Source of the DNA: Halothiobacillaceae bacterium UBA5861 | GTDB lineage: Bacteria > Pseudomonadota > Gammaproteobacteria > UBA5861 | Direction: 5' to 3' | DNA length: 64,000 bases | NCBI GenBank assembly: GCA_002432635.1 | Contig: DJFX01000012.1 | Location: 112-64,111, forward strand | Shown here: positions 1-58,688 of the stretch, one piece after another | How the letters are laid out: each line of letters starts with the position of its first letter | Position numbering within the stretch: position 1 is the first letter of the stretch | Made by a program: the position numbers and the translations under genes | The notes under the pieces: model-generated | Told to the model about the DNA's origin: nothing | The model's database searches: none | Seen by the model: the letters and a program-made list of their open reading frames with translations, nothing else

Positions 1-977
1 GCACACTCATGAAAAATGTGCTCTATGCACTGGTGCCTGGCGTGCTTATTTCGACAGGGCTATTTGGCTGGGGAGTGCTCATAAATCTGGCCATTGCCTG
101 TGTGACAGCCATCCTTGCAGAAACGGCGGTGATGAAACTCCGACGCCGCCCGGTCGCGCCCGCGCTCTTAGACTACAGCGCATTGGTGACAGCTTGCTTG
201 TTGGCTCTGTCACTCCCCCCCATTGCTCCGTGGTGGATCCCCGTCATTGGGGTTTTATCAGCCATCCTTGTGGCCAAGCATCTTTATGGAGGGTTGGGAC
301 ACAACCCCTTTAACCCGGCCATGGTAGGCTATGTTGTGCTGCTGATTTCCTTCCCTCGGGAGTTAAGCCTATGGCCTGCTCCCAGTGGTATGCTCACGCA
401 CACGCTCAGCGTTACAGAAACCGTCCGGTTTTTATTCACGGGCATACTGCCTGAGGCCGTGCGCCTTGATGGCATCACAATGGCTACAGCATTGGATTAC
501 ACCAAGACTCAATTACGGCTCGGTGATGATCTGGCGGCACTCGCTTCGCATGCCAGTTATGGCTGGCTCGGCGCTCGCGGTTGGGAGTGGGTTTCTCTCG
601 GCTATCTACTGGGGGGGCTCTGGTTACTCTACAAACGCGTAATCAGTTGGCATATTCCGGTTGCTTTTCTCGGCAGTCTGTTACTGATTGCGAGCCTGTT
701 TTCTCTCATTGATAACACCTACTTTGCGCCTCCCCTGTTTCATCTCGCCAGTGGCAGCGTCATTCTGGCTGCTTTTTTTATTGCAACGGACCCTGTAACC
801 GCATCCACCAGCCCGGTCGGCCGATTACTTTATGCCGCGGGTATCGGTGTACTGGTGTATGTCATTCGCACATGGGGAGGCTACCCTGATGGCATTGCCT
901 TTGCCGTGCTGATTATGAATCTGGCCGCGCCCACCATTGATCACTTTTACCAGCCCCGTGCATTCGGTCACAAATGA
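1..977 (+). CDS. rnfD: Rnf electron-transport complex subunit D (RnfD/RsxD). The 5' end is cut by the window edge; about 20 N-terminal residues are missing relative to E. coli RsxD.
   Basis: ORF 9..977 aligns along its whole length to RsxD (LFGWG, PPIAPWW, LYGGLGHNPFNPAM, TDPVTAST, GGYPDGIAFAVL). The frame stays open back to position 3. Confidence 0.9.
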   Translation, partial: TLMKNVLYALVPGVLISTGLFGWGVLINLAIACVTAILAETAVMKLRRRPVAPALLDYSALVTACLLALSLPPIAPWWIPVIGVLSAILVAKHLYGGLGHNPFNPAMVGYVVLLISFPRELSLWPAPSGMLTHTLSVTETVRFLFTGILPEAVRLDGITMATALDYTKTQLRLGDDLAALASHASYGWLGARGWEWVSLGYLLGGLWLLYKRVISWHIPVAFLGSLLLIASLFSLIDNTYFAPPLFHLASGSVILAAFFIATDPVTASTSPVGRLLYAAGIGVLVYVIRTWGGYPDGIAFAVLIMNLAAPTIDHFYQPRAFGHK

Positions 978-1612
978 AGACACCTCTACAACAAGTCCTA
1001 GGCTCTGCACTCATTCTCTGCTTATTTGCAATCATCGGCACAGCGTTGGTTGCCCTGACTCATAAACAAACACGTGACCAAATTAAAGTGAATGAACGCC
1101 AGGAACTACTCGCCAGACTCTCACAAGTTGTCTCTCAAAGCGGGCTGGACAATGACCTTATCACCAGCGCGCTACCCGTTCACTCACCGGAATTACTGGG
1201 TAGCAAAGCACCTGTTCCCGCTTACCGAGCCACCCAGGACGGTCAACCCATTGCCGTTATTCTGACAGCCACCGCCCGCAATGGTTACAACGGAGGGATC
1301 CGGCTCTTGGTCGGTATACAAGCAGACGGCAAAATTTCTGGTGTGCGCGTTATCCAGCATAAAGAAACGCCGGGGCTGGGTGATGCCATCGAGGTCGAAA
1401 AGTCCAACTGGATACTGGGGTTTAATGGCCTGTCTTTATTAAATTTGTCCCCTTCCGACTGGGCGGTCAAAAAAGATGGGGGCGCCTTCGACCAGTTTAC
1501 AGGAGCGACCATTACGCCTCGCGCAGTCGTTGGCGCCGTTTACCGATCGCTGCAATTTTTTGAGAACAATCAAGAGCGGCTTCTGAGTGCAGAAACAGCA
1601 AATGATCAATAG
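974..1612 (+). CDS. rnfG: Rnf complex subunit G (FMN-binding)
   Basis: Its start overlaps the rnfD stop by 4 nt. Size, N-terminal TM helix and position between rnfD and rnfE are typical of RnfG/RsxG. Confidence 0.85.
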   Translation: MKTPLQQVLGSALILCLFAIIGTALVALTHKQTRDQIKVNERQELLARLSQVVSQSGLDNDLITSALPVHSPELLGSKAPVPAYRATQDGQPIAVILTATARNGYNGGIRLLVGIQADGKISGVRVIQHKETPGLGDAIEVEKSNWILGFNGLSLLNLSPSDWAVKKDGGAFDQFTGATITPRAVVGAVYRSLQFFENNQERLLSAETANDQ

Positions 1613-2013
1613 TTTTTTACAAATTTACTCAGCCAGTTTTGCCATTTTTGGTGATCTGTTTTGGGTGCATCAACCAGTTCAATCCCAATCAGATAATCCG
1701 CCCCTTTGTTGGATGGCATTGACCACTTAACAACCCCATGAAGAAAGAACTTGCCATGATGCCCTTCGATATTCACCCACAGGTCCAGTCCACACCCCAT
1801 CATTACTGGGTGGTCAACCCGCAACTGGAGCCCCTTCGGGGAAATATCGATCGTGCTGCTGGCAAACGTCTGACCTCTCAACGAAAGGTCTTCCCGGGAG
1901 TGGGCAATCTGCACGTAAAGACGAGACTGGTTCAGCAAACGTCCATCCGTTCGACGCTCGTCAATGCTTCTTCGCTGTATCAAAGGCCCTGTAGTCTTTA
2001 TACTCGTGGACAT
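1606..2013 (-). CDS. Single-domain PilZ c-di-GMP receptor
   Basis: Has the RRTDGR (RxxxR) motif followed about 35 aa later by DISPKG (DxSxxG). Lies antisense between rnfG and rnfE. Its stop overlaps the rnfG stop by 7 nt. Confidence 0.7.
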   Translation of the reverse strand: MSTSIKTTGPLIQRRSIDERRTDGRLLNQSRLYVQIAHSREDLSLRGQTFASSTIDISPKGLQLRVDHPVMMGCGLDLWVNIEGHHGKFFLHGVVKWSMPSNKGADYLIGIELVDAPKTDHQKWQNWLSKFVKNY

Positions 2014-2106
2014 AACAATCCCTTGCCTGCTTCAAAATGAGCTTAACTTAGAGTTTAGATTTACCCTTATTTTTTGCAATTCTCATATCGAAAGCCAACT
2101 AAAAAA

Positions 2107-2796
2107 ATGAATGCCTACACAAAAATCATAAAAAATGGACTTTGGGATAATAACCCAGGGCTTGTGCAGCTACTTGGTTTATGTCCCTTATTAGCAGTCA
2201 GTGGCACGGTCATCAACGGTTTAGGCATGGGGCTGGCAACATTAGCGACGCTGCTGGTTTCCAACGTGCTGGTCTCCCTCGTCAGAGACTACGTGAAATC
2301 AGATGTCCGGATTCCGGTTTTTGTGCTGATTATTGCCTCCACAGTGACAGCGATTGAGTTACTGATGAATGCCTGGTTTTACGACTTATACAAAGTCCTT
2401 GGTATTTTTGTACCCTTGATTGTCACAAACTGTCTGATCATTGGCCGAGCCGAAGCGTTTGCGGCAAAAAACAAAGTGATGGACGCCGTGATTGATGCAC
2501 TCGCAATGGGCATTGGCTTCACCTTGGTATTAGTTTGTATTGGCGGTATGCGCGAATTGGTCGGAGAAGGCACACTCTTCGCCAATGCCCACCTGATGTT
2601 TGGTGAAACGGCCCGCTCCATGGAGCTTTCTCTCGGCAATCAGTATCAGGGGTTTCTGCTCGCTGTTTTACCGCCAGGCGCCTTTATTTCGCTGGGATTA
2701 CTCATCGCGTTGAAAAATATTATTGACGATCGGATTAAGCGAAAACAAAGCTTGCCTGTCAGCAACGATGCGCTAGCAGCAGGTCCTACATCTTAA
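2107..2796 (+). CDS. rnfE: Rnf complex subunit E (RnfE/RsxE)
   Basis: From [32 protein letters not shown] onward it aligns to E. coli RsxE ([25 protein letters not shown]). The ATG at 2107 is chosen over the 2074 track start by alignment. Confidence 0.9.
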
Positions 2797-2823
2797 ACAC
2801 TTAAAGCCAAGCTGTAATGTGGC

Positions 2824-3630
2824 TTACAAACCCTCATCAAGCGCCTTTTTGACCTCTTTCCAATAATCGTCTATGGCGTCCAACGGCAGCTCTTCAAGCA
2901 CTTCGCCTTGCTGGTCGATCAATATTTCCATGGCCTGAAAACGTTTAACAAACTTTTTGTTACCGGCTCTCAAAGCCACCTCGGGGTTCACCTTAAGATG
3001 CCGCGCCAAATTGACGACGGCAAACAACAGATCACCCACTTCCTCAGCCACCTGATCGGATGCGCCTAGCTCTTTGGACGCCGCATCACGCACTTCCTCT
3101 AATTCTTCCTGAACTTTATCAAAAACCGGCTCGACCGAGCCCCAGTCAAAACCAACACGAGCCACGCGCTTTTGTATCTTTTCGGCGCTTATTAGCGAAG
3201 GCAATGCCTCGGTAATGCCATCCAGCTGGCTGCTTTTCTGTCCATCAGATTTTCCCCGACGTTCCTCAGCTTTTATCTTCTCCCAAGACTGTGCGATGGA
3301 AGCTTCATCAACACGCGAACGTTTATTTGAAAAAACATGAGGATGTCGCCGCTCCATTTTCTCTGCAATGGTTTCTGCAACATCAAAAAAAGTGAAGTGA
3401 CCGGATTCTTGGGCAATCTGCGCATAAAAGACAATATGGAAAAGTAAATCGCCCAGCTCCTCACGTAAGTCGCCGGTATCGTCCCGCTCGATGGCATCAA
3501 CCACCTCATAGGCTTCTTCGAGGGTATAGGGCGCAAGTGAAGTATAGGTTTGACGAAGATCCCAGGGGCACCCTGCCTCAGGGTCACGCAGCGCGCGCAT
3601 AATACCCAACAAGCGGTTTACGGCATCCAA
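2824..3630 (-). CDS. mazG: Nucleoside triphosphate pyrophosphohydrolase MazG
   Basis: The tandem MazG domains align to E. coli MazG (RLRDPE-GCPWD, EETYEV, ERRHPHVF, GDLLFA-VNLARHL). Confidence 0.9.
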   Translation of the reverse strand: MDAVNRLLGIMRALRDPEAGCPWDLRQTYTSLAPYTLEEAYEVVDAIERDDTGDLREELGDLLFHIVFYAQIAQESGHFTFFDVAETIAEKMERRHPHVFSNKRSRVDEASIAQSWEKIKAEERRGKSDGQKSSQLDGITEALPSLISAEKIQKRVARVGFDWGSVEPVFDKVQEELEEVRDAASKELGASDQVAEEVGDLLFAVVNLARHLKVNPEVALRAGNKKFVKRFQAMEILIDQQGEVLEELPLDAIDDYWKEVKKALDEGL

Positions 3631-3639
3631 ATCAAGGCC

Positions 3640-4242
3640 TTAGAACGTGAGCCTAACACCAACGTGAAAGTTATCTTCCAACTCAAGGTCAGAGATGGTG
3701 GGCGTATCTACCGTGACTTTTCGGTAACCGAAATAAAGAATGGAGGAAGGGACCAATTCAAACTTTACGTCCACAGCATATTCAAGCAATTCTTCTGAAT
3801 CCATAAAGCTTAAAATAAGAGGGGAATAAAACAGTTCTCCGCCAACCGTCATTTTTCGAGCAAAGTAAGGACGGAGATTGATTTCCCCACCAATAGAAAG
3901 ATTAGCCAGGCTATCCTCTACATCAAGCTCACCATAGCTGGCGCGAACACCCAAGCCGAACTGGACGGAGCCTTCTGCTGAAACCGGGCGGCTTTTTACC
4001 ATCACTTCCGCATGAGCGAGGTAGTCATTGTTACTGTTAAAGAATGCACCAAAAGCAATATCAGCACCTTCGATACGCTCTTGCGTGTCGGCATTAGCGG
4101 CTCTTTTTGTGAGCCCAAGTGTTGATGTATGTGTGAGAAACATGACTTCGGCTGTCTCATCACTGATGCTGATATCCAGACCTGTCGCACCTACATGGCT
4201 AACCGCTAAAAAAAGTACAACACTTGTTATCCGCTTAAACAT
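3640..4242 (-). CDS. Small outer-membrane beta-barrel protein, YfaZ-like
   Basis: N-terminal signal peptide MFKRITSVVLFLAVSHVGA, alternating beta-strand pattern, and a C-terminal aromatic residue (..VGVRLTF) typical of OMPs. Confidence 0.5.
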   Translation of the reverse strand: MFKRITSVVLFLAVSHVGATGLDISISDETAEVMFLTHTSTLGLTKRAANADTQERIEGADIAFGAFFNSNNDYLAHAEVMVKSRPVSAEGSVQFGLGVRASYGELDVEDSLANLSIGGEINLRPYFARKMTVGGELFYSPLILSFMDSEELLEYAVDVKFELVPSSILYFGYRKVTVDTPTISDLELEDNFHVGVRLTF

Positions 4243-19512: not shown

Positions 19513-21603
19513 TCAAGCGGGTTCGCTTTCAGCCGTGAGGGGATGGGGCAAGCCTAAGCGGTACCCTTGCCCATAATTGATGCCGATTTCCAGCAGCGCT
19601 TTTATGATTGGCTCACTACTGACATATTCAGCAATGGTTTTGACGCCCAAGGTGCATGCTACCGAGTGAATGGCTTCCACCACAGAGCGATCCACTGCAC
19701 TGTGTGTGATCGACTGTACTAAACGGCCATCAATTTTGATGTAATCGACCGGTAATTTTTTCAATGTGCCAAATGAGGAAAAACCCGTGCCGAAACCGTC
19801 CAGAGCAACCCGACAACCCAACTGTTTTAGCTCTGTGAGAAAAGGCAGAACAGAAGCCATATTACGAACAACGACCGTTTCATCGATTTCAAAGCAAATT
19901 TTGCTCGCAGGAACTTGATATTTATTCAGGTGTTGATGAATAAAACTGGGAAGTGTTTTATCGCTCACGACGGTTCCGGAAAGGTTAATCGACAAGCTAC
20001 TGACCGGCCTTTTATGCATCATCACCTCATTGAAATGATGAAATGCCTTGTCAATCACCCAGCGATCAATTTTTGTCATCACCCCGTATCGCTCAGCAGC
20101 AGGAATGAAGGACCCTGGAGGCAAGAGTTTGCCATCGTTACGGGGGCTCAACCGAAGCAGTATTTCGTAGAGCTCCACTCGGTTGTTTTTTTCAGGCAAT
20201 GACTTAATCGGTTGGCAGTACAATTCAAACCGGTTGTCTCTTAACGCCCGGTTGAGGTCAGAAACTTTTTGGTTCTCTGTCAGCCTCACTTTCCCCACCG
20301 GCTCGTCAGGGGTGTAAATTTGCAAGCGGTTGCGGCCTTTATCCTTTGCCTGGTAACAAGCTATATCGGCCTGGTGAATCAAGGTTTCTGTATCTTTTGC
20401 CAACACGTCAATAGTAACCAGCCCAATACTGCAACCCACTTCAAACGAATAATTTTCCCACGTGAAGCGAAAGTCACTGACGGTTTCAATTAAGCCCTGC
20501 GCCAGACGAGTCGCGCGATCAGGGGGGCAGTGCTCCAGCAATAACGCAAACTCATCCCCCCCGATCCGGGCCAAGGTATCCCGTCCACGGACCTGTCCTG
20601 ACAAAAGCGCCGTAAGCTGGCGCAAGAGTTCGTCACCGGCCAAGTGCCCCACAGTGTCATTGACAAGCTTGAAGCGATCCAGATCAATGTAACATAAGGC
20701 ATGCTCATACCCCCGCTCGCGGGCACCAGTGATGGCGACTTGCAACCGCTGTTCGAATTCCTCACGATTTACCAGGCCCGTTAAAGAATCATGAGTGGCC
20801 TGATAAGCAATTTTATTAGCGATCGCATTCCACTCAGTGACATCTGAAAAGAGCAACACAACGCCGCGCAATGAACCCTGGCTATCCAACATGGGAGAAG
20901 CTGTTTGCTGAATCGCGTATTCTTTCCCTTCCCGATTCAGCAAGATAACGGTGCCACAATTAATCTCTTTTCTTTGCGAAAGGCACGCCATGACCGGGCT
21001 GTCAATTTTTGCACCGCCAGGCTCTGCTGACAGGTGCATCACCTCATCAATCGCATGTTCGCTGACTTGATCAGCCAATACTGACAACAACCTTTCTGCC
21101 ACCGGATTAATGTATTGGATCTGTCCGCGTGTATCGGTGGCAATAATCCCGCTACTGACCGCCTGGCACATCAACTGAAAGCGCTCTTTCTCTAACGCCA
21201 GGATATCCCGCTCCTGAAGTGTCGCATCTTCATTGTTCAAACAAAGCAGGAGACAATACTGCTTTCCCTCTTTTATTCTCACCGCAGTCATGCCAACCTT
21301 AAGCCGTTGATGGCTCTCGGTATTCAAGCACTCGACAACTCGCCGGCCTGAGCAGCCTCTACGAATGGCAGTCACCAGCATTGACGCTACCGACGACTGC
21401 GCGTCTTCCGGGAAAAATGATTGAAATTGGCGCGCTTTTATTTGCGCAATCTCCAGGCCCAGCACCTGGGTTGCACTTGGACTCGCACAGAGTACCCGGT
21501 CGGATGCCGAATCTACCAACAAATAAACATCGCTGGCACAGCCAAACATTTGATCAAAAATGAGGTCCACCTGATCCGACCCACACAGAAGCTTATCTGT
21601 CAT
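19513..21603 (-). CDS. PAS-PAS-GGDEF-EAL c-di-GMP signalling protein
   Basis: GGDEF motif, EAL-domain motifs (ELYEILLRL, DDFGTG-like, QGY) and N-terminal PAS repeats. Confidence 0.9.
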   Translation of the reverse strand: MTDKLLCGSDQVDLIFDQMFGCASDVYLLVDSASDRVLCASPSATQVLGLEIAQIKARQFQSFFPEDAQSSVASMLVTAIRRGCSGRRVVECLNTESHQRLKVGMTAVRIKEGKQYCLLLCLNNEDATLQERDILALEKERFQLMCQAVSSGIIATDTRGQIQYINPVAERLLSVLADQVSEHAIDEVMHLSAEPGGAKIDSPVMACLSQRKEINCGTVILLNREGKEYAIQQTASPMLDSQGSLRGVVLLFSDVTEWNAIANKIAYQATHDSLTGLVNREEFEQRLQVAITGARERGYEHALCYIDLDRFKLVNDTVGHLAGDELLRQLTALLSGQVRGRDTLARIGGDEFALLLEHCPPDRATRLAQGLIETVSDFRFTWENYSFEVGCSIGLVTIDVLAKDTETLIHQADIACYQAKDKGRNRLQIYTPDEPVGKVRLTENQKVSDLNRALRDNRFELYCQPIKSLPEKNNRVELYEILLRLSPRNDGKLLPPGSFIPAAERYGVMTKIDRWVIDKAFHHFNEVMMHKRPVSSLSINLSGTVVSDKTLPSFIHQHLNKYQVPASKICFEIDETVVVRNMASVLPFLTELKQLGCRVALDGFGTGFSSFGTLKKLPVDYIKIDGRLVQSITHSAVDRSVVEAIHSVACTLGVKTIAEYVSSEPIIKALLEIGINYGQGYRLGLPHPLTAESEPA

Positions 21604-22033
21604 GGCCCAGACGCAACCACTCTGATTTTACGCCACAGAAGTGGGCGCTTTGGCAATGAATGGAAGCAATAGATGCTCTCGACACTGTGAAACTGGCAAC
21701 ACACTTCATTTCCCAACACAAATTTTCACCTCTTCAGTCAAAAAAGCCGAATGATCAGGTGCCCACCGTCCATGCTAGACCAGCCTATATTATTGTTTTT
21801 CAAGTAACTGACCGCTCAATTCTACACTATTCTAATAATAGACAACTATTATCGATAATTGGAAAACATATAAGCATCTGCTATCTGACACATGAAAACG
21901 TTTATCCTGATAAAATGCACGTTTGTACTTTTTTAATCATCACGGTGGAGTGATCTATGGCGCTTTGGTCAAAACTGGCCACCACCCATTAACTTAATAT
22001 GCCACGATAACAACAGACAAAACTCATTAACCT

Positions 22034-24816: not shown

Positions 24817-25884
24817 TTGAGACGCACAGAGAAAACCTTACTGGAGCAAATGCAGATCAGCGACGTGGAAATTGCACGGCGTATGGAGTTGTTAAATCTC
24901 GATAAAAACGCACTCGACCTGTTGTGTGGCCAGCAACGTCTTGTTGAAGAAAATATTGATGCCATCGTCGAAGAGTTTTACAAAAGACAAACAGAAATTG
25001 ACGAAATTGCACTACTCATCGGTGATGCCGACACATTAAGACGCTTACGCAACGCTCAACGTCAGTATGTCATCGACCTCTTCTCAGGGAACTGCAACAG
25101 CGAATATGTTAACAATCGCCTACGTATTGGAATGGTTCATAAGCGTATTGGGGTGGAGCCCAAACTTTACCTGTCCGCAGTCAAAACACTAAAAGAACTG
25201 GTCCTGAGGGTCTTAAAAGAAAATATCGAAAAAGAAACATTCCTAAAAGTCGCTGATGCACTGGACAAACTCCTTTACTTTGACACCACACTTGTCTTTG
25301 ACACTTACATTGACAGCCTGGTTGGGGAAATAGAGACCGCCAAAAAAAGAACCGAAGAATATGCCAAAAGCCTGGAAGACAAAGTAGCAGAAAGAACGAA
25401 GCAGCTCGAGGAGCAGGCCAAACTTGACCCATTGACCAATTTATATAATCAACGCGCAATGCAAGATGCCTTCAAACGGGAATTGGCCACGGCAAAGCGA
25501 CGGAGAAGTAAACTTTCACTGATCTATCTTGATATTGATTGCTTCAAAAAAATCAATGACGAATACGGTCATATCAGAGGCGATGAAGTCCTCAAACACC
25601 TCGGTAAAACGCTACTCAACACCATTCGTGAAATGGATATTCCCTGCCGATACGGAGGCGATGAGTTTTGCATCATATTGCCAGACTGTACCATTGAAAA
25701 TGCGCAGGAAGTTTCCAATCGAATCATCCATTCATTTTCTGAAAAATACCCGGAATTTTCGCTCAGCATCGGCATTGCTGAGACGGGATCGGAAGAATAC
25801 AGTGATGAAAATACACTGATAAAGTCGGCCGATAAGAAAATGTACCTGGCCAAAAAACAAACCGGCTCCTATATCTGCCACTAA
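24817..25884 (+). CDS. Globin-coupled sensor diguanylate cyclase (protoglobin-like N-domain plus GGDEF)
   Basis: N-terminal 160 aa with a proximal-His-type motif MVHKRIGVEPKLYL and a distal Tyr candidate (EEFYKRQ), a coiled-coil linker, and a GGDEF domain carrying an RxxD I-site. Start is TTG at 24817 (RBS GGGGA) or ATG at 24850. Confidence 0.65.
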   Translation: MRRTEKTLLEQMQISDVEIARRMELLNLDKNALDLLCGQQRLVEENIDAIVEEFYKRQTEIDEIALLIGDADTLRRLRNAQRQYVIDLFSGNCNSEYVNNRLRIGMVHKRIGVEPKLYLSAVKTLKELVLRVLKENIEKETFLKVADALDKLLYFDTTLVFDTYIDSLVGEIETAKKRTEEYAKSLEDKVAERTKQLEEQAKLDPLTNLYNQRAMQDAFKRELATAKRRRSKLSLIYLDIDCFKKINDEYGHIRGDEVLKHLGKTLLNTIREMDIPCRYGGDEFCIILPDCTIENAQEVSNRIIHSFSEKYPEFSLSIGIAETGSEEYSDENTLIKSADKKMYLAKKQTGSYICH

Positions 25885-30888: not shown

Positions 30889-31917
30889 ATGCAAAAACCC
30901 AATATTCCCAAGGATGAGCAATTCAGGCTTCAAACACTGCATTCGCTGAGCATTCTAGATACGCCCGCTGAAAACCGTTTTGACTGCATCACACGCATGG
31001 CTAAACGCTTGTTTAATGTGCCTATCGCGCTCGTCAGCCTGGTGGATGAAAACCGCCAGTGGTTTAAATCAAGTATTGGGCTCGAAGCCTCCGAAACACC
31101 TCGGGATATCTCTTTTTGTGGGCACGCTATTTTGAGTAAAGGTATTTTTATCGTTCCTAATGCCTTGGAAGATGAACGCTTTTCTGATAACCCTTTAGTG
31201 CTTAAAGATCCCTACATCCGCTTTTATGCAGGCTACCCGTTAAAAGCGCTCAATGGCCAGCAGTTGGGAACGCTGTGCCTGATTGACCGAAAGCCGAGAA
31301 CCTTGGATGACGGAGACCTTGCTACACTAAAAGACCTAGCTTCAACCGTCGAACGAGAGCTGGCCGCCATTGAGCTGGCCACAGTGGATGAATTAACGCG
31401 AGTCTCCAATCGGCGAGGGTTCTCTCTACTGGCAAGTCACTGCCTGCGGCTTTGCACCCGCCAAAAATTGCCTGCTTCCTTGGTCTACTTTGATCTTGAC
31501 AACTTTAAACCGATCAATGACCGGTTCGGGCACGCAGAAGGCGACAAAGCCCTGGTTGCCTTTGCTGATCAATTGAAAGGCGCCTGCCGGGATTCGGATA
31601 TCCCTGTACGCTTAGGTGGCGATGAATTTGCCTTGCTGTTAATCAATACAACTCTGGACATCGCCGAAGGTTTTATCAGTCGCTTCAAAGAGTCAGTAGA
31701 CACCTACAACGAATCCGTCAATCGTGGATACGATATTCTTTTTTCACATGGCATCGTCGCGTTTGATCATCAAAAACCCTCAACCATCCAGGAAATGCTC
31801 ACAGAAGGTGATGCAGAAATGTATCGACGGAAACAATTGAGAAAAAACCATTCGACGTGTGAGTCAACACAACCTGGCAATAAAGCCAGCGCTCATCATA
31901 TACAGCCCTTTATCTAA
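30889..31917 (+). CDS. GAF-GGDEF diguanylate cyclase
   Basis: N-terminal GAF domain, GGDEF motif and an I-site RxxD. Confidence 0.85.
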   Translation: MQKPNIPKDEQFRLQTLHSLSILDTPAENRFDCITRMAKRLFNVPIALVSLVDENRQWFKSSIGLEASETPRDISFCGHAILSKGIFIVPNALEDERFSDNPLVLKDPYIRFYAGYPLKALNGQQLGTLCLIDRKPRTLDDGDLATLKDLASTVERELAAIELATVDELTRVSNRRGFSLLASHCLRLCTRQKLPASLVYFDLDNFKPINDRFGHAEGDKALVAFADQLKGACRDSDIPVRLGGDEFALLLINTTLDIAEGFISRFKESVDTYNESVNRGYDILFSHGIVAFDHQKPSTIQEMLTEGDAEMYRRKQLRKNHSTCESTQPGNKASAHHIQPFI

Positions 31918-58443: not shown

Positions 58444-58489
58444 AAGTCATTACGGAAGAAGTTTAAGCCTGGAGCGGGGGAGGAGGACG

Positions 58490-58668
58490 CTCTCCACGCG
58501 TGCCGCCGTTACTTTTGACCTTGAACCAGTCGGTTCAGGTGGGAGCCAATGGCCTGTATCAGGCTTTCCGCTCGTAGCGGACTTGCACAACAACAGACTG
58601 CATCAAGCACCCGGGTTTCGATATTAGGCTCAAGAGTACCCCAGTAACTAGCAAACACCGCAGATTGC
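58490..58668 (-). ncRNA. ssrS: 6S RNA (SsrS)
   Basis: The minus-strand sequence resembles the E. coli 6S RNA sequence as recalled from memory, especially its 3' half (ACCUGAACCGACUGGUUCAAGG..GUAACGGCGGCA versus E. coli ACCUUGAACCAAGGGUUCAAGGGUUACAGCCUGCGGCGGCA). It lies between zapA and ygfA, as in E. coli and Pseudomonas. The ends are approximate. Confidence 0.65.
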
Positions 58669-58688
58669 GCCCAAAACACAATACTCGG

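Follow-up and report, generated by a model that had tools for sequence, protein, structure and literature searches.

The second messenger c-di-GMP controls motility, adhesion, polysaccharide secretion, and development. Its described PilZ receptors MapZ/PA4608, PA0012, Alg44, BcsA, YcgR, and MotI/DgrA share the PF07238 domain with RRxxxR and DxSxxG motifs, and the stand-alone ones (MapZ/PA4608 and PA0012 of Pseudomonas aeruginosa) consist of a barrel followed by a C-terminal helix. The Rnf complex (an ion-translocating ferredoxin:NAD+ oxidoreductase) is encoded in Gammaproteobacteria by the canonical six-gene rnfABCDGE (rsxABCDGE) operon, with nth/rnfH after rnfE. In our literature search, no c-di-GMP receptor was found to be linked directly to Rnf or a comparable membrane redox complex.

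A different kind of precedent is provided by operons interrupted by a gene of opposite orientation. In the noncontiguous operons of Staphylococcus aureus, which include energy-metabolism operons, an internal gene lies on the opposite strand and the overlapping transcripts repress each other; according to the authors, sequence alone does not suffice to predict such operons, and transcript maps are needed for their recognition (PMC11034616). Both noncontiguous operons (e.g., menE-menC/MW1733 of S. aureus (PMC11034616)) and excludons (PMC7154746, PMC12288877) set one gene against its flanking genes, and both are defined by transcript maps together with RNase III-dependent mutual repression. In this work, we describe an rnf operon in which a gene encoding a PilZ-domain protein is placed antisense between rnfG and rnfE.

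Organization of the rnf locus

The window (i.e., the whole 64,000-nt stretch of DNA analyzed in this work) contains rnfD, rnfG, and rnfE, all recognized by both Pfam and NCBIfam models (Table 1), while rnfA, rnfB, and rnfC were found upstream in the identical contigs L001/L002, so that all six genes of the Rnf/Rsx operon are intact and in canonical order. The same pilZ gene, with rnfA, rnfB, and rnfC upstream, was present in contigs from several metagenomes.

The sequence-level statements of a first-pass annotation of this DNA were borne out by the analysis: rnfD and rnfG overlap (the start of rnfG and the stop of rnfD share 4 nt, ATGA), rnfE is the next gene of the operon, and the two are set apart by a minus-strand ORF of 135 aa carrying both PilZ motifs, at a distance described as about 500 bp and measured here as 494 nt between the rnfG stop and the rnfE start. 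The overlap of 7 nt that it had ascribed to the stop codons of pilZ and rnfG holds for the two reading frames; the stop codons themselves (TGA of pilZ, read from 1606-1608, and TAG of rnfG, 1610-1612) are only adjacent. Instead of a contiguous, translationally coupled rnfG-rnfE junction, the locus displays the gene order of a noncontiguous operon, i.e., rnfA-B-C-D-G, the opposite-strand pilZ, and then rnfE.

As the three c-di-GMP turnover genes distinguished within the 64 kb (Table 1) show, the organism has c-di-GMP signalling. Besides, a gene of 6S RNA was identified in the window, and no tRNA genes were found there.

Table 1. Features of the window discussed in this work.
Feature	Coordinates	Strand	Description
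rnfD/rsxD	9..977	+	truncated at the 5' end by the window start; full-length gene of 342 aa in L001/L002; Pfam NQR2_RnfD_RnfE 2.3e-98; NCBIfam RsxD 415 bits
rnfG/rsxG	974..1612	+	212 aa; FMN-binding subunit; NCBIfam RsxG 231 bits (cutoff 178); Pfam FMN_bind 6.4e-20
rnfG/pilZ reading-frame overlap	1606..1612	convergent	7 nt
pilZ	1606..2013	-	stand-alone PilZ-domain gene; 135 aa; between rnfG and rnfE
pilZ-rnfE divergent spacer	2014..2106		93 nt; flanked by both starts; AT-rich (32% GC)
rnfE/rsxE	2107..2796	+	229 aa, intact; NCBIfam RsxE 327.8 bits (cutoff 184); Pfam Rnf-Nqr 1.9e-64
PAS-GGDEF-EAL	19516..21627	-	
Protoglobin-GGDEF	24817..25881	+	globin-coupled, probably O2-sensing diguanylate cyclase
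GAF-GGDEF	30889..31914	+	
6S RNA (SsrS)	58487..58669	-	Rfam RF00013, 85.5 bits; sole Rfam match in the window

The PilZ protein

The product of pilZ matched the Pfam PilZ domain (PF07238) over residues 42-128 with 32.6 bits (cutoff 22.5) and E = 1e-7. An ERRxxxR motif is localized at residues 19-25 (E19-R20-R21-T-D-G-R25, with R21 and R25 forming RxxxR), and 31 residues past R25 there is a DxSxxG motif at residues 56-61 (D56-I-S58-P-K-G61); in c-di-GMP-binding PilZ domains, D/NxSxxG is expected some 20-30 residues after the arginine motif. In the alignment of 61 family members, arginine was found in the R21 column of 60 and in the R25 column of 59 sequences, while D56, S58, and G61 were kept in 56, 61, and 60 of them, respectively; W97, G110, and W124 are invariant, and the window protein holds every conserved residue. 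An HMM constructed from this alignment matched the pilZ ORF (E = 1.9e-44) and nothing else in the window.

The AF2 model based on the 61-sequence alignment (pLDDT 86.6, pTM 0.77), which superseded an initial model built with three sequences (pLDDT 72.5), predicts a six-strand barrel (strands 31-38, 49-57, 61-66, 75-81, 88-100, and 107-114) followed by a C-terminal helix (121-134), the N-terminal arm being less confident. With its single barrel and one helix, the modelled protein has no DNA-binding domain. The search of PDB sequences with the clade profile gave no match at E<=1 and that with the family profile gave only marginal matches (0.1-0.4), to a non-binding type IV pilus PilZ protein, and a comparison of folds was therefore needed. 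Amongst the best 34 Foldseek matches in the PDB almost all were PilZ domains, many of them c-di-GMP-bound, including those of Alg44, MotI/DgrA, BcsA, MrkH, YcgR, PP4397, VCA0042, and PA0012; for the PilZ domains of Alg44, MotI, MrkH, YcgR, and BcsA, the probability was 1.00 and the TM values were 0.5-0.7. The protein is thus a new member of a known family, and its motifs suggest that it binds c-di-GMP.

Distribution of the insertion

When the GTDB species, each represented by one genome, were screened with the window RnfE, 80 loci were obtained. The closest of them, L009, belongs to a gammaproteobacterial MAG (95% RnfE identity) and is followed by Cycloclasticus and Thiotrichales-type MAGs (63-71%). 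According to tblastn, a PilZ gene is present in L009 only, which agrees with the first-pass view of the arrangement as unusual (one carrier among the 80 species representatives whose RnfE is most similar); since the screen rests on exact 8-residue RnfE peptides and missed the locus L006 described below, the absence refers to the 79 other loci, a sample and not a census. The distance from the rnfG stop to the rnfE start was between -29 and +37 nt in 77 of 79 loci (mostly overlaps of 8, 4, or 1 nt), and the two outliers were L009 (494 nt) and L037 (177 nt; L037 3808..3986). In another of the loci, a 1.6-Mb chromosome MAG (L056), rnfE was found with no detectable rnfD or rnfG in the 4 kb upstream.

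The PilZ protein of L009 is encoded at the same site and is 93% identical to that of the window. Within 5.8 billion clustered proteins only one other close homologue was found, P0002 (46% identity), whose gene (L006 10001..10408) lies in a genome with RnfE, RnfD, and RnfG of 77%, 69%, and 58% identity, respectively, to those of the window. The L006 pilZ has an identical place and orientation between rnfG and rnfE, and overlaps rnfG by 17 nt; downstream of rnfE there is TauD in L006 and mazG in the window. A gene encoding a DUF3391/HD_5 (HD-GYP-type) protein was noted 2.6 kb beyond rnfE in L006. In all three lineages (the window, L009, and L006) the pilZ ORF is intact and exactly 135 aa long. 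As an orthologue of the same length and only 46% identity occupies the same site, and as the family profile recognizes the ORF with the E-value given above, it is a genuine PilZ-domain gene and not a chance ORF.

The metagenome scan with the PilZ alignment recovered the same organism only and no further lineages. The contig L002 (ERZ937833), originating from the beach sand metagenome SRR1570769 (PRJNA260285), is 100% identical to positions 1..4067 of the window, and the contigs L001, L003-L005, and L089 differ from the window by at most 0.11%. In the PRJNA260285 beach-sand data set, the window organism is therefore represented by a population. It is abundant in oiled beach sand.

The wider family was reached by an exhaustive HMMER search with the clade profile, as a word-indexed protein search had returned two clusters only. 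Among 1.84 billion representative proteins, 513 were found at E<=1e-3 and 97 at <=1e-10, almost all of them single-domain PilZ proteins of 110-150 aa, and only two 50%-identity clusters fell under 1e-30. Nine more distant members were looked up, and seven of them had a readable gene context: adjoining pyrF, flanked by a retropepsin-like gene on one side and an unknown gene on the other, after phosphoglucomutase, in a carbonic anhydrase operon, after proS, in a tandem PilZ pair, and adjoining a restriction-modification system. None of these seven has rnf neighbours, and since such distant members occupy unrelated neighbourhoods, family synteny lends no support to an Rnf partner. It may be added that the tandem pair consists of two 123-aa PilZ genes (L100 5001..5760), and that the member of the beta-carbonic anhydrase operon (L097) is translationally coupled in it and located near an Mrp/hydrogenase-like membrane complex.

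Origin and possible role of the embedded gene

The explanation that we favour, with moderate confidence, is that a functional single-domain PilZ gene, likely encoding a c-di-GMP-binding adaptor, was inserted once in antisense orientation at the rnfG/rnfE junction and has since been kept. This one reverse-orientation insertion would have taken place in an ancestor common to the window organism, to the L009 MAG, and, at a greater distance, to L006, and the gene would have been retained as protein-coding ever since. The simplest history is likewise one insertion made long ago, in the ancestor of a marine gammaproteobacterial clade that is small and sparsely sampled. The GC content and GC3 of pilZ are those of the neighbour genes, and the repeat search around it revealed short chance matches only, with no insertion scars or mobile-element ends; together these results indicate that the insertion is old. 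It would have abolished the usual translational coupling of rnfG and rnfE. The protein would bind c-di-GMP through the flexible ERRxxxR arm and the DxSxxG strand and, like other stand-alone PilZ proteins, would act by touching a partner protein, which need not be Rnf.

A more specific proposal, which we consider unlikely, makes the PilZ protein a c-di-GMP-dependent regulator dedicated to Rnf: it would bind an Rnf subunit and tune electron flow, and its position in the operon would reflect this partnership. YcgR and MotI, which brake the flagellar motor, may serve as a model. The site and orientation of pilZ are conserved between the 46%-identical lineages while the genes past rnfE differ, and the gene has been kept despite breaking a nearly universal coupled junction, both of which speak for the proposal; moreover, genes of antagonistic function have been reported inside noncontiguous operons, including some of energy metabolism (PMC11034616). 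However, a gene trapped in a selected operon stays put with no functional link at all, and the retention of pilZ inside an essential operon could be simple hitch-hiking. The relatives outside the tiny clade are never found beside rnf in the seven readable contexts, and the full-text literature search gave no paper tying PilZ to Rnf. A functional link between c-di-GMP and Rnf, for which synteny speaks, is given only a slim chance. The same low probability is assigned to the extended version of this proposal, in which the embedded protein would be a c-di-GMP-responsive Rnf modulator and the locus a noncontiguous operon where Rnf expression silences the brake and expression of the brake silences rnfE.

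Selection acting on pilZ

The comparison of the pilZ genes of the window and L006 revealed saturated synonymous sites (pS 0.80, with pN 0.33) and differences per codon position of 0.37/0.29/0.65. This pattern, together with the synonymous saturation, shows that the ORF has long been kept as a protein.

The closer pair gives a different picture, as 10 non-synonymous and four synonymous differences separate the pilZ genes of the window and L009, which corresponds to dN/dS of 0.70 (against 0.20 for rnfG and 0.10 for rnfE), although these 14 differences are too few to tell 0.7 from about 0.2. Synonymous divergence from L009 is 0.046 for pilZ, 0.14 for rnfG, and 0.26 for rnfE (Fisher p = 0.0012, pilZ vs rnfG plus rnfE), and the whole region 1606..2106 differs from L009 3500..4000 by 3.2% against 6.5% locally (Poisson P of about 9e-4). 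Relaxed constraint, local recombination, or chance in one pair could each account for the low divergence and the raised dN/dS. Selection on an RNA of the opposite strand was also considered as the cause of the low synonymous divergence, and it is unlikely as a lasting constraint, given the saturation of synonymous sites between the window and L006.

These data bear on another alternative, in which pilZ, once functional, would now be a neutral or decaying passenger with no present role, selection on it having relaxed in the window lineage. The dN/dS value would fit such a relaxation, one of the two spacer positions that differ in L009 falls in the pilZ Shine-Dalgarno sequence, and a shift in a binding motif is observed in P0002. 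This protein is the only one of the 61 family members with no arginine at both RxxxR columns (I and Q instead), its RxxxR (R15-x3-R19) being one residue out of the family register. The first-pass annotation had held that loss of the motifs in orthologues would mark the ORF as spurious; in P0002, DxSxxG is kept (as DVSAQG), and RxxxR is shifted by one residue. The protein may or may not still bind c-di-GMP, judging from these residues. Against the passenger status of pilZ speak its intact 135 codons in all three lineages, the long-term purifying selection visible in the codon positions, the position of the substitutions (none of the 10 amino-acid replacements separating the window protein from that of L009 affects a motif or family-invariant residue), and the small number of differences on which the raised ratio is based. 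We thus regard the absence of any present role as improbable, and the retention of a functional gene as the better explanation.

Transcription of the locus

The pilZ gene is preceded, 5 nt upstream of its ATG, by the Shine-Dalgarno sequence AAGGGA (complement of 2019..2024). By eye, a weak candidate pilZ promoter can be proposed, with a putative -35 element TTGCAA at 2074..2079 and a putative -10 element TAAACT (complement of 2052..2057), matching the consensus in 8 of 12 positions and falling under the threshold of the tool. The spacer differs from that of L009 at two of its 93 nt, and the window and L006 have in common only the Shine-Dalgarno block and one AGTnTAGAnTnAC block, which, again by eye, could be the pilZ -10 region.

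No sigma-70-like promoter was detected in 2014..2106, where the first-pass annotation had assumed that rnfE might have a promoter of its own, or in 900..3000 by the consensus scan, which performed at or below the shuffle level over 20 kb, and no sigma-54 -24/-12 element was visible in the spacer. Similarly, no intrinsic terminator was found in 900..3000 with a scan that has no discriminating power in this genome (shuffle level, 20 kb). The reading frames of rnfG and pilZ converge and overlap, and there is consequently no room for a terminator between them, so each mRNA would extend antisense into the other gene: any pilZ mRNA into rnfG, and any rnfABCDG mRNA into pilZ. Mutual dampening of the expression of pilZ and of rnf/rnfE would be the expected consequence. 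On its plus strand, the gap is rich in C and poor in G (C/G 1.4); if untranslated, such RNA would favour Rho termination, which argues against simple read-through into rnfE.

It was also observed that ORFs of the rnf strand tile the gap antisense to pilZ, at 1587..1730, 1738..2040, and 1964..2110 (all +) in the window, their counterpart in L006 being a single 178-aa ORF that starts inside rnfG (L006 9908..10444, minus strand). In both lineages the stop of the last of these ORFs, which has 48 aa in the window, overlaps the start codon of rnfE (ATGA). In a post-hoc test with shuffled spacers, this frame stayed open in 11% and 19% of the shuffles, or about 2% for the two taken together. The tiling may consist of shadow ORFs or may, alternatively, be a means to keep ribosomes on a read-through transcript.

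The first-pass annotation had gone further and proposed that antisense transcription of pilZ interferes with rnf/rnfE and thereby couples the c-di-GMP state to Rnf expression. Transcriptional interference as such is plausible from the geometry, as the reading frames converge with an overlap (7 nt in the window and 17 nt in L006) that makes overlapping transcripts unavoidable, and no terminator-like site was seen between rnfG and pilZ by the scan described above. Control of Rnf expression by c-di-GMP does not follow from this layout, however, because the c-di-GMP sensor is the PilZ protein, which has no DNA-binding module, and interference would depend on the activity of the pilZ promoter and not on c-di-GMP bound to the protein. 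Moreover, the promoter scan of 900..3000 was negative, and the Rfam scan revealed no c-di-GMP riboswitch or other element near the locus. Altogether, such coupling seems quite improbable.

As for a structured RNA or riboswitch in the gap, this candidate was rejected on the grounds of the Rfam result and of the folding of the plus-strand RNA, which shows no excess of structure over shuffled sequences (z = -0.15). The last and weakest alternative, i.e., a spurious ORF within a non-coding spacer or RNA element of the rnf transcript, in favour of which nucleotide divergence from L009 at about half of the local mean could be cited, is effectively refuted by the Pfam and family-profile matches, the confident PilZ fold, the L006 orthologue with its conserved protein despite saturated synonymous sites, and the same folding and Rfam results.

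Comparison with known systems

The locus is an evolutionarily retained, natural case of a c-di-GMP receptor gene placed antisense in the most tightly coupled junction of rnf. If the protein indeed modulates Rnf, this would be the first direct link of c-di-GMP to a respiratory or redox-balancing complex. Should the placement prove functional, it would offer a concrete, testable system for second-messenger control of cellular redox and ion-motive balance, and would bear on the question of whether noncontiguous operons exist outside Firmicutes. If it does not, the locus still illustrates neatly that an operon can tolerate a gene insertion by which translational coupling is lost.

In comparison with the described PilZ receptors, the window protein has the same domain and motifs, and its size and predicted barrel with a C-terminal helix resemble those of the stand-alone MapZ/PA4608 and PA0012. 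Its sequence similarity to the PilZ proteins of solved structure is under detection; nonetheless, its closest structural matches are PilZ receptors. What distinguishes it is the genomic site inside rnf, reported for none of MapZ/PA4608, PA0012, Alg44, BcsA, YcgR, and MotI/DgrA.

The rnf genes themselves are the same six subunit genes, in the same order, as in the canonical gammaproteobacterial operon. The rnfG-rnfE junction differs, as the short distance or overlap seen in 77 of 79 relatives is replaced here by 494 nt with an opposite-strand gene; unlike in the canonical operon, rnfE is not followed by nth/rnfH and mazG converges on it instead.

Finally, like noncontiguous operons and excludons, the locus sets one gene against its flanking genes; while those systems are defined by mapped transcripts and RNase III-dependent mutual repression, the present one is known from its gene layout. 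With this layout, the rnf operon takes a new form, and it may be counted among the candidate noncontiguous operons.
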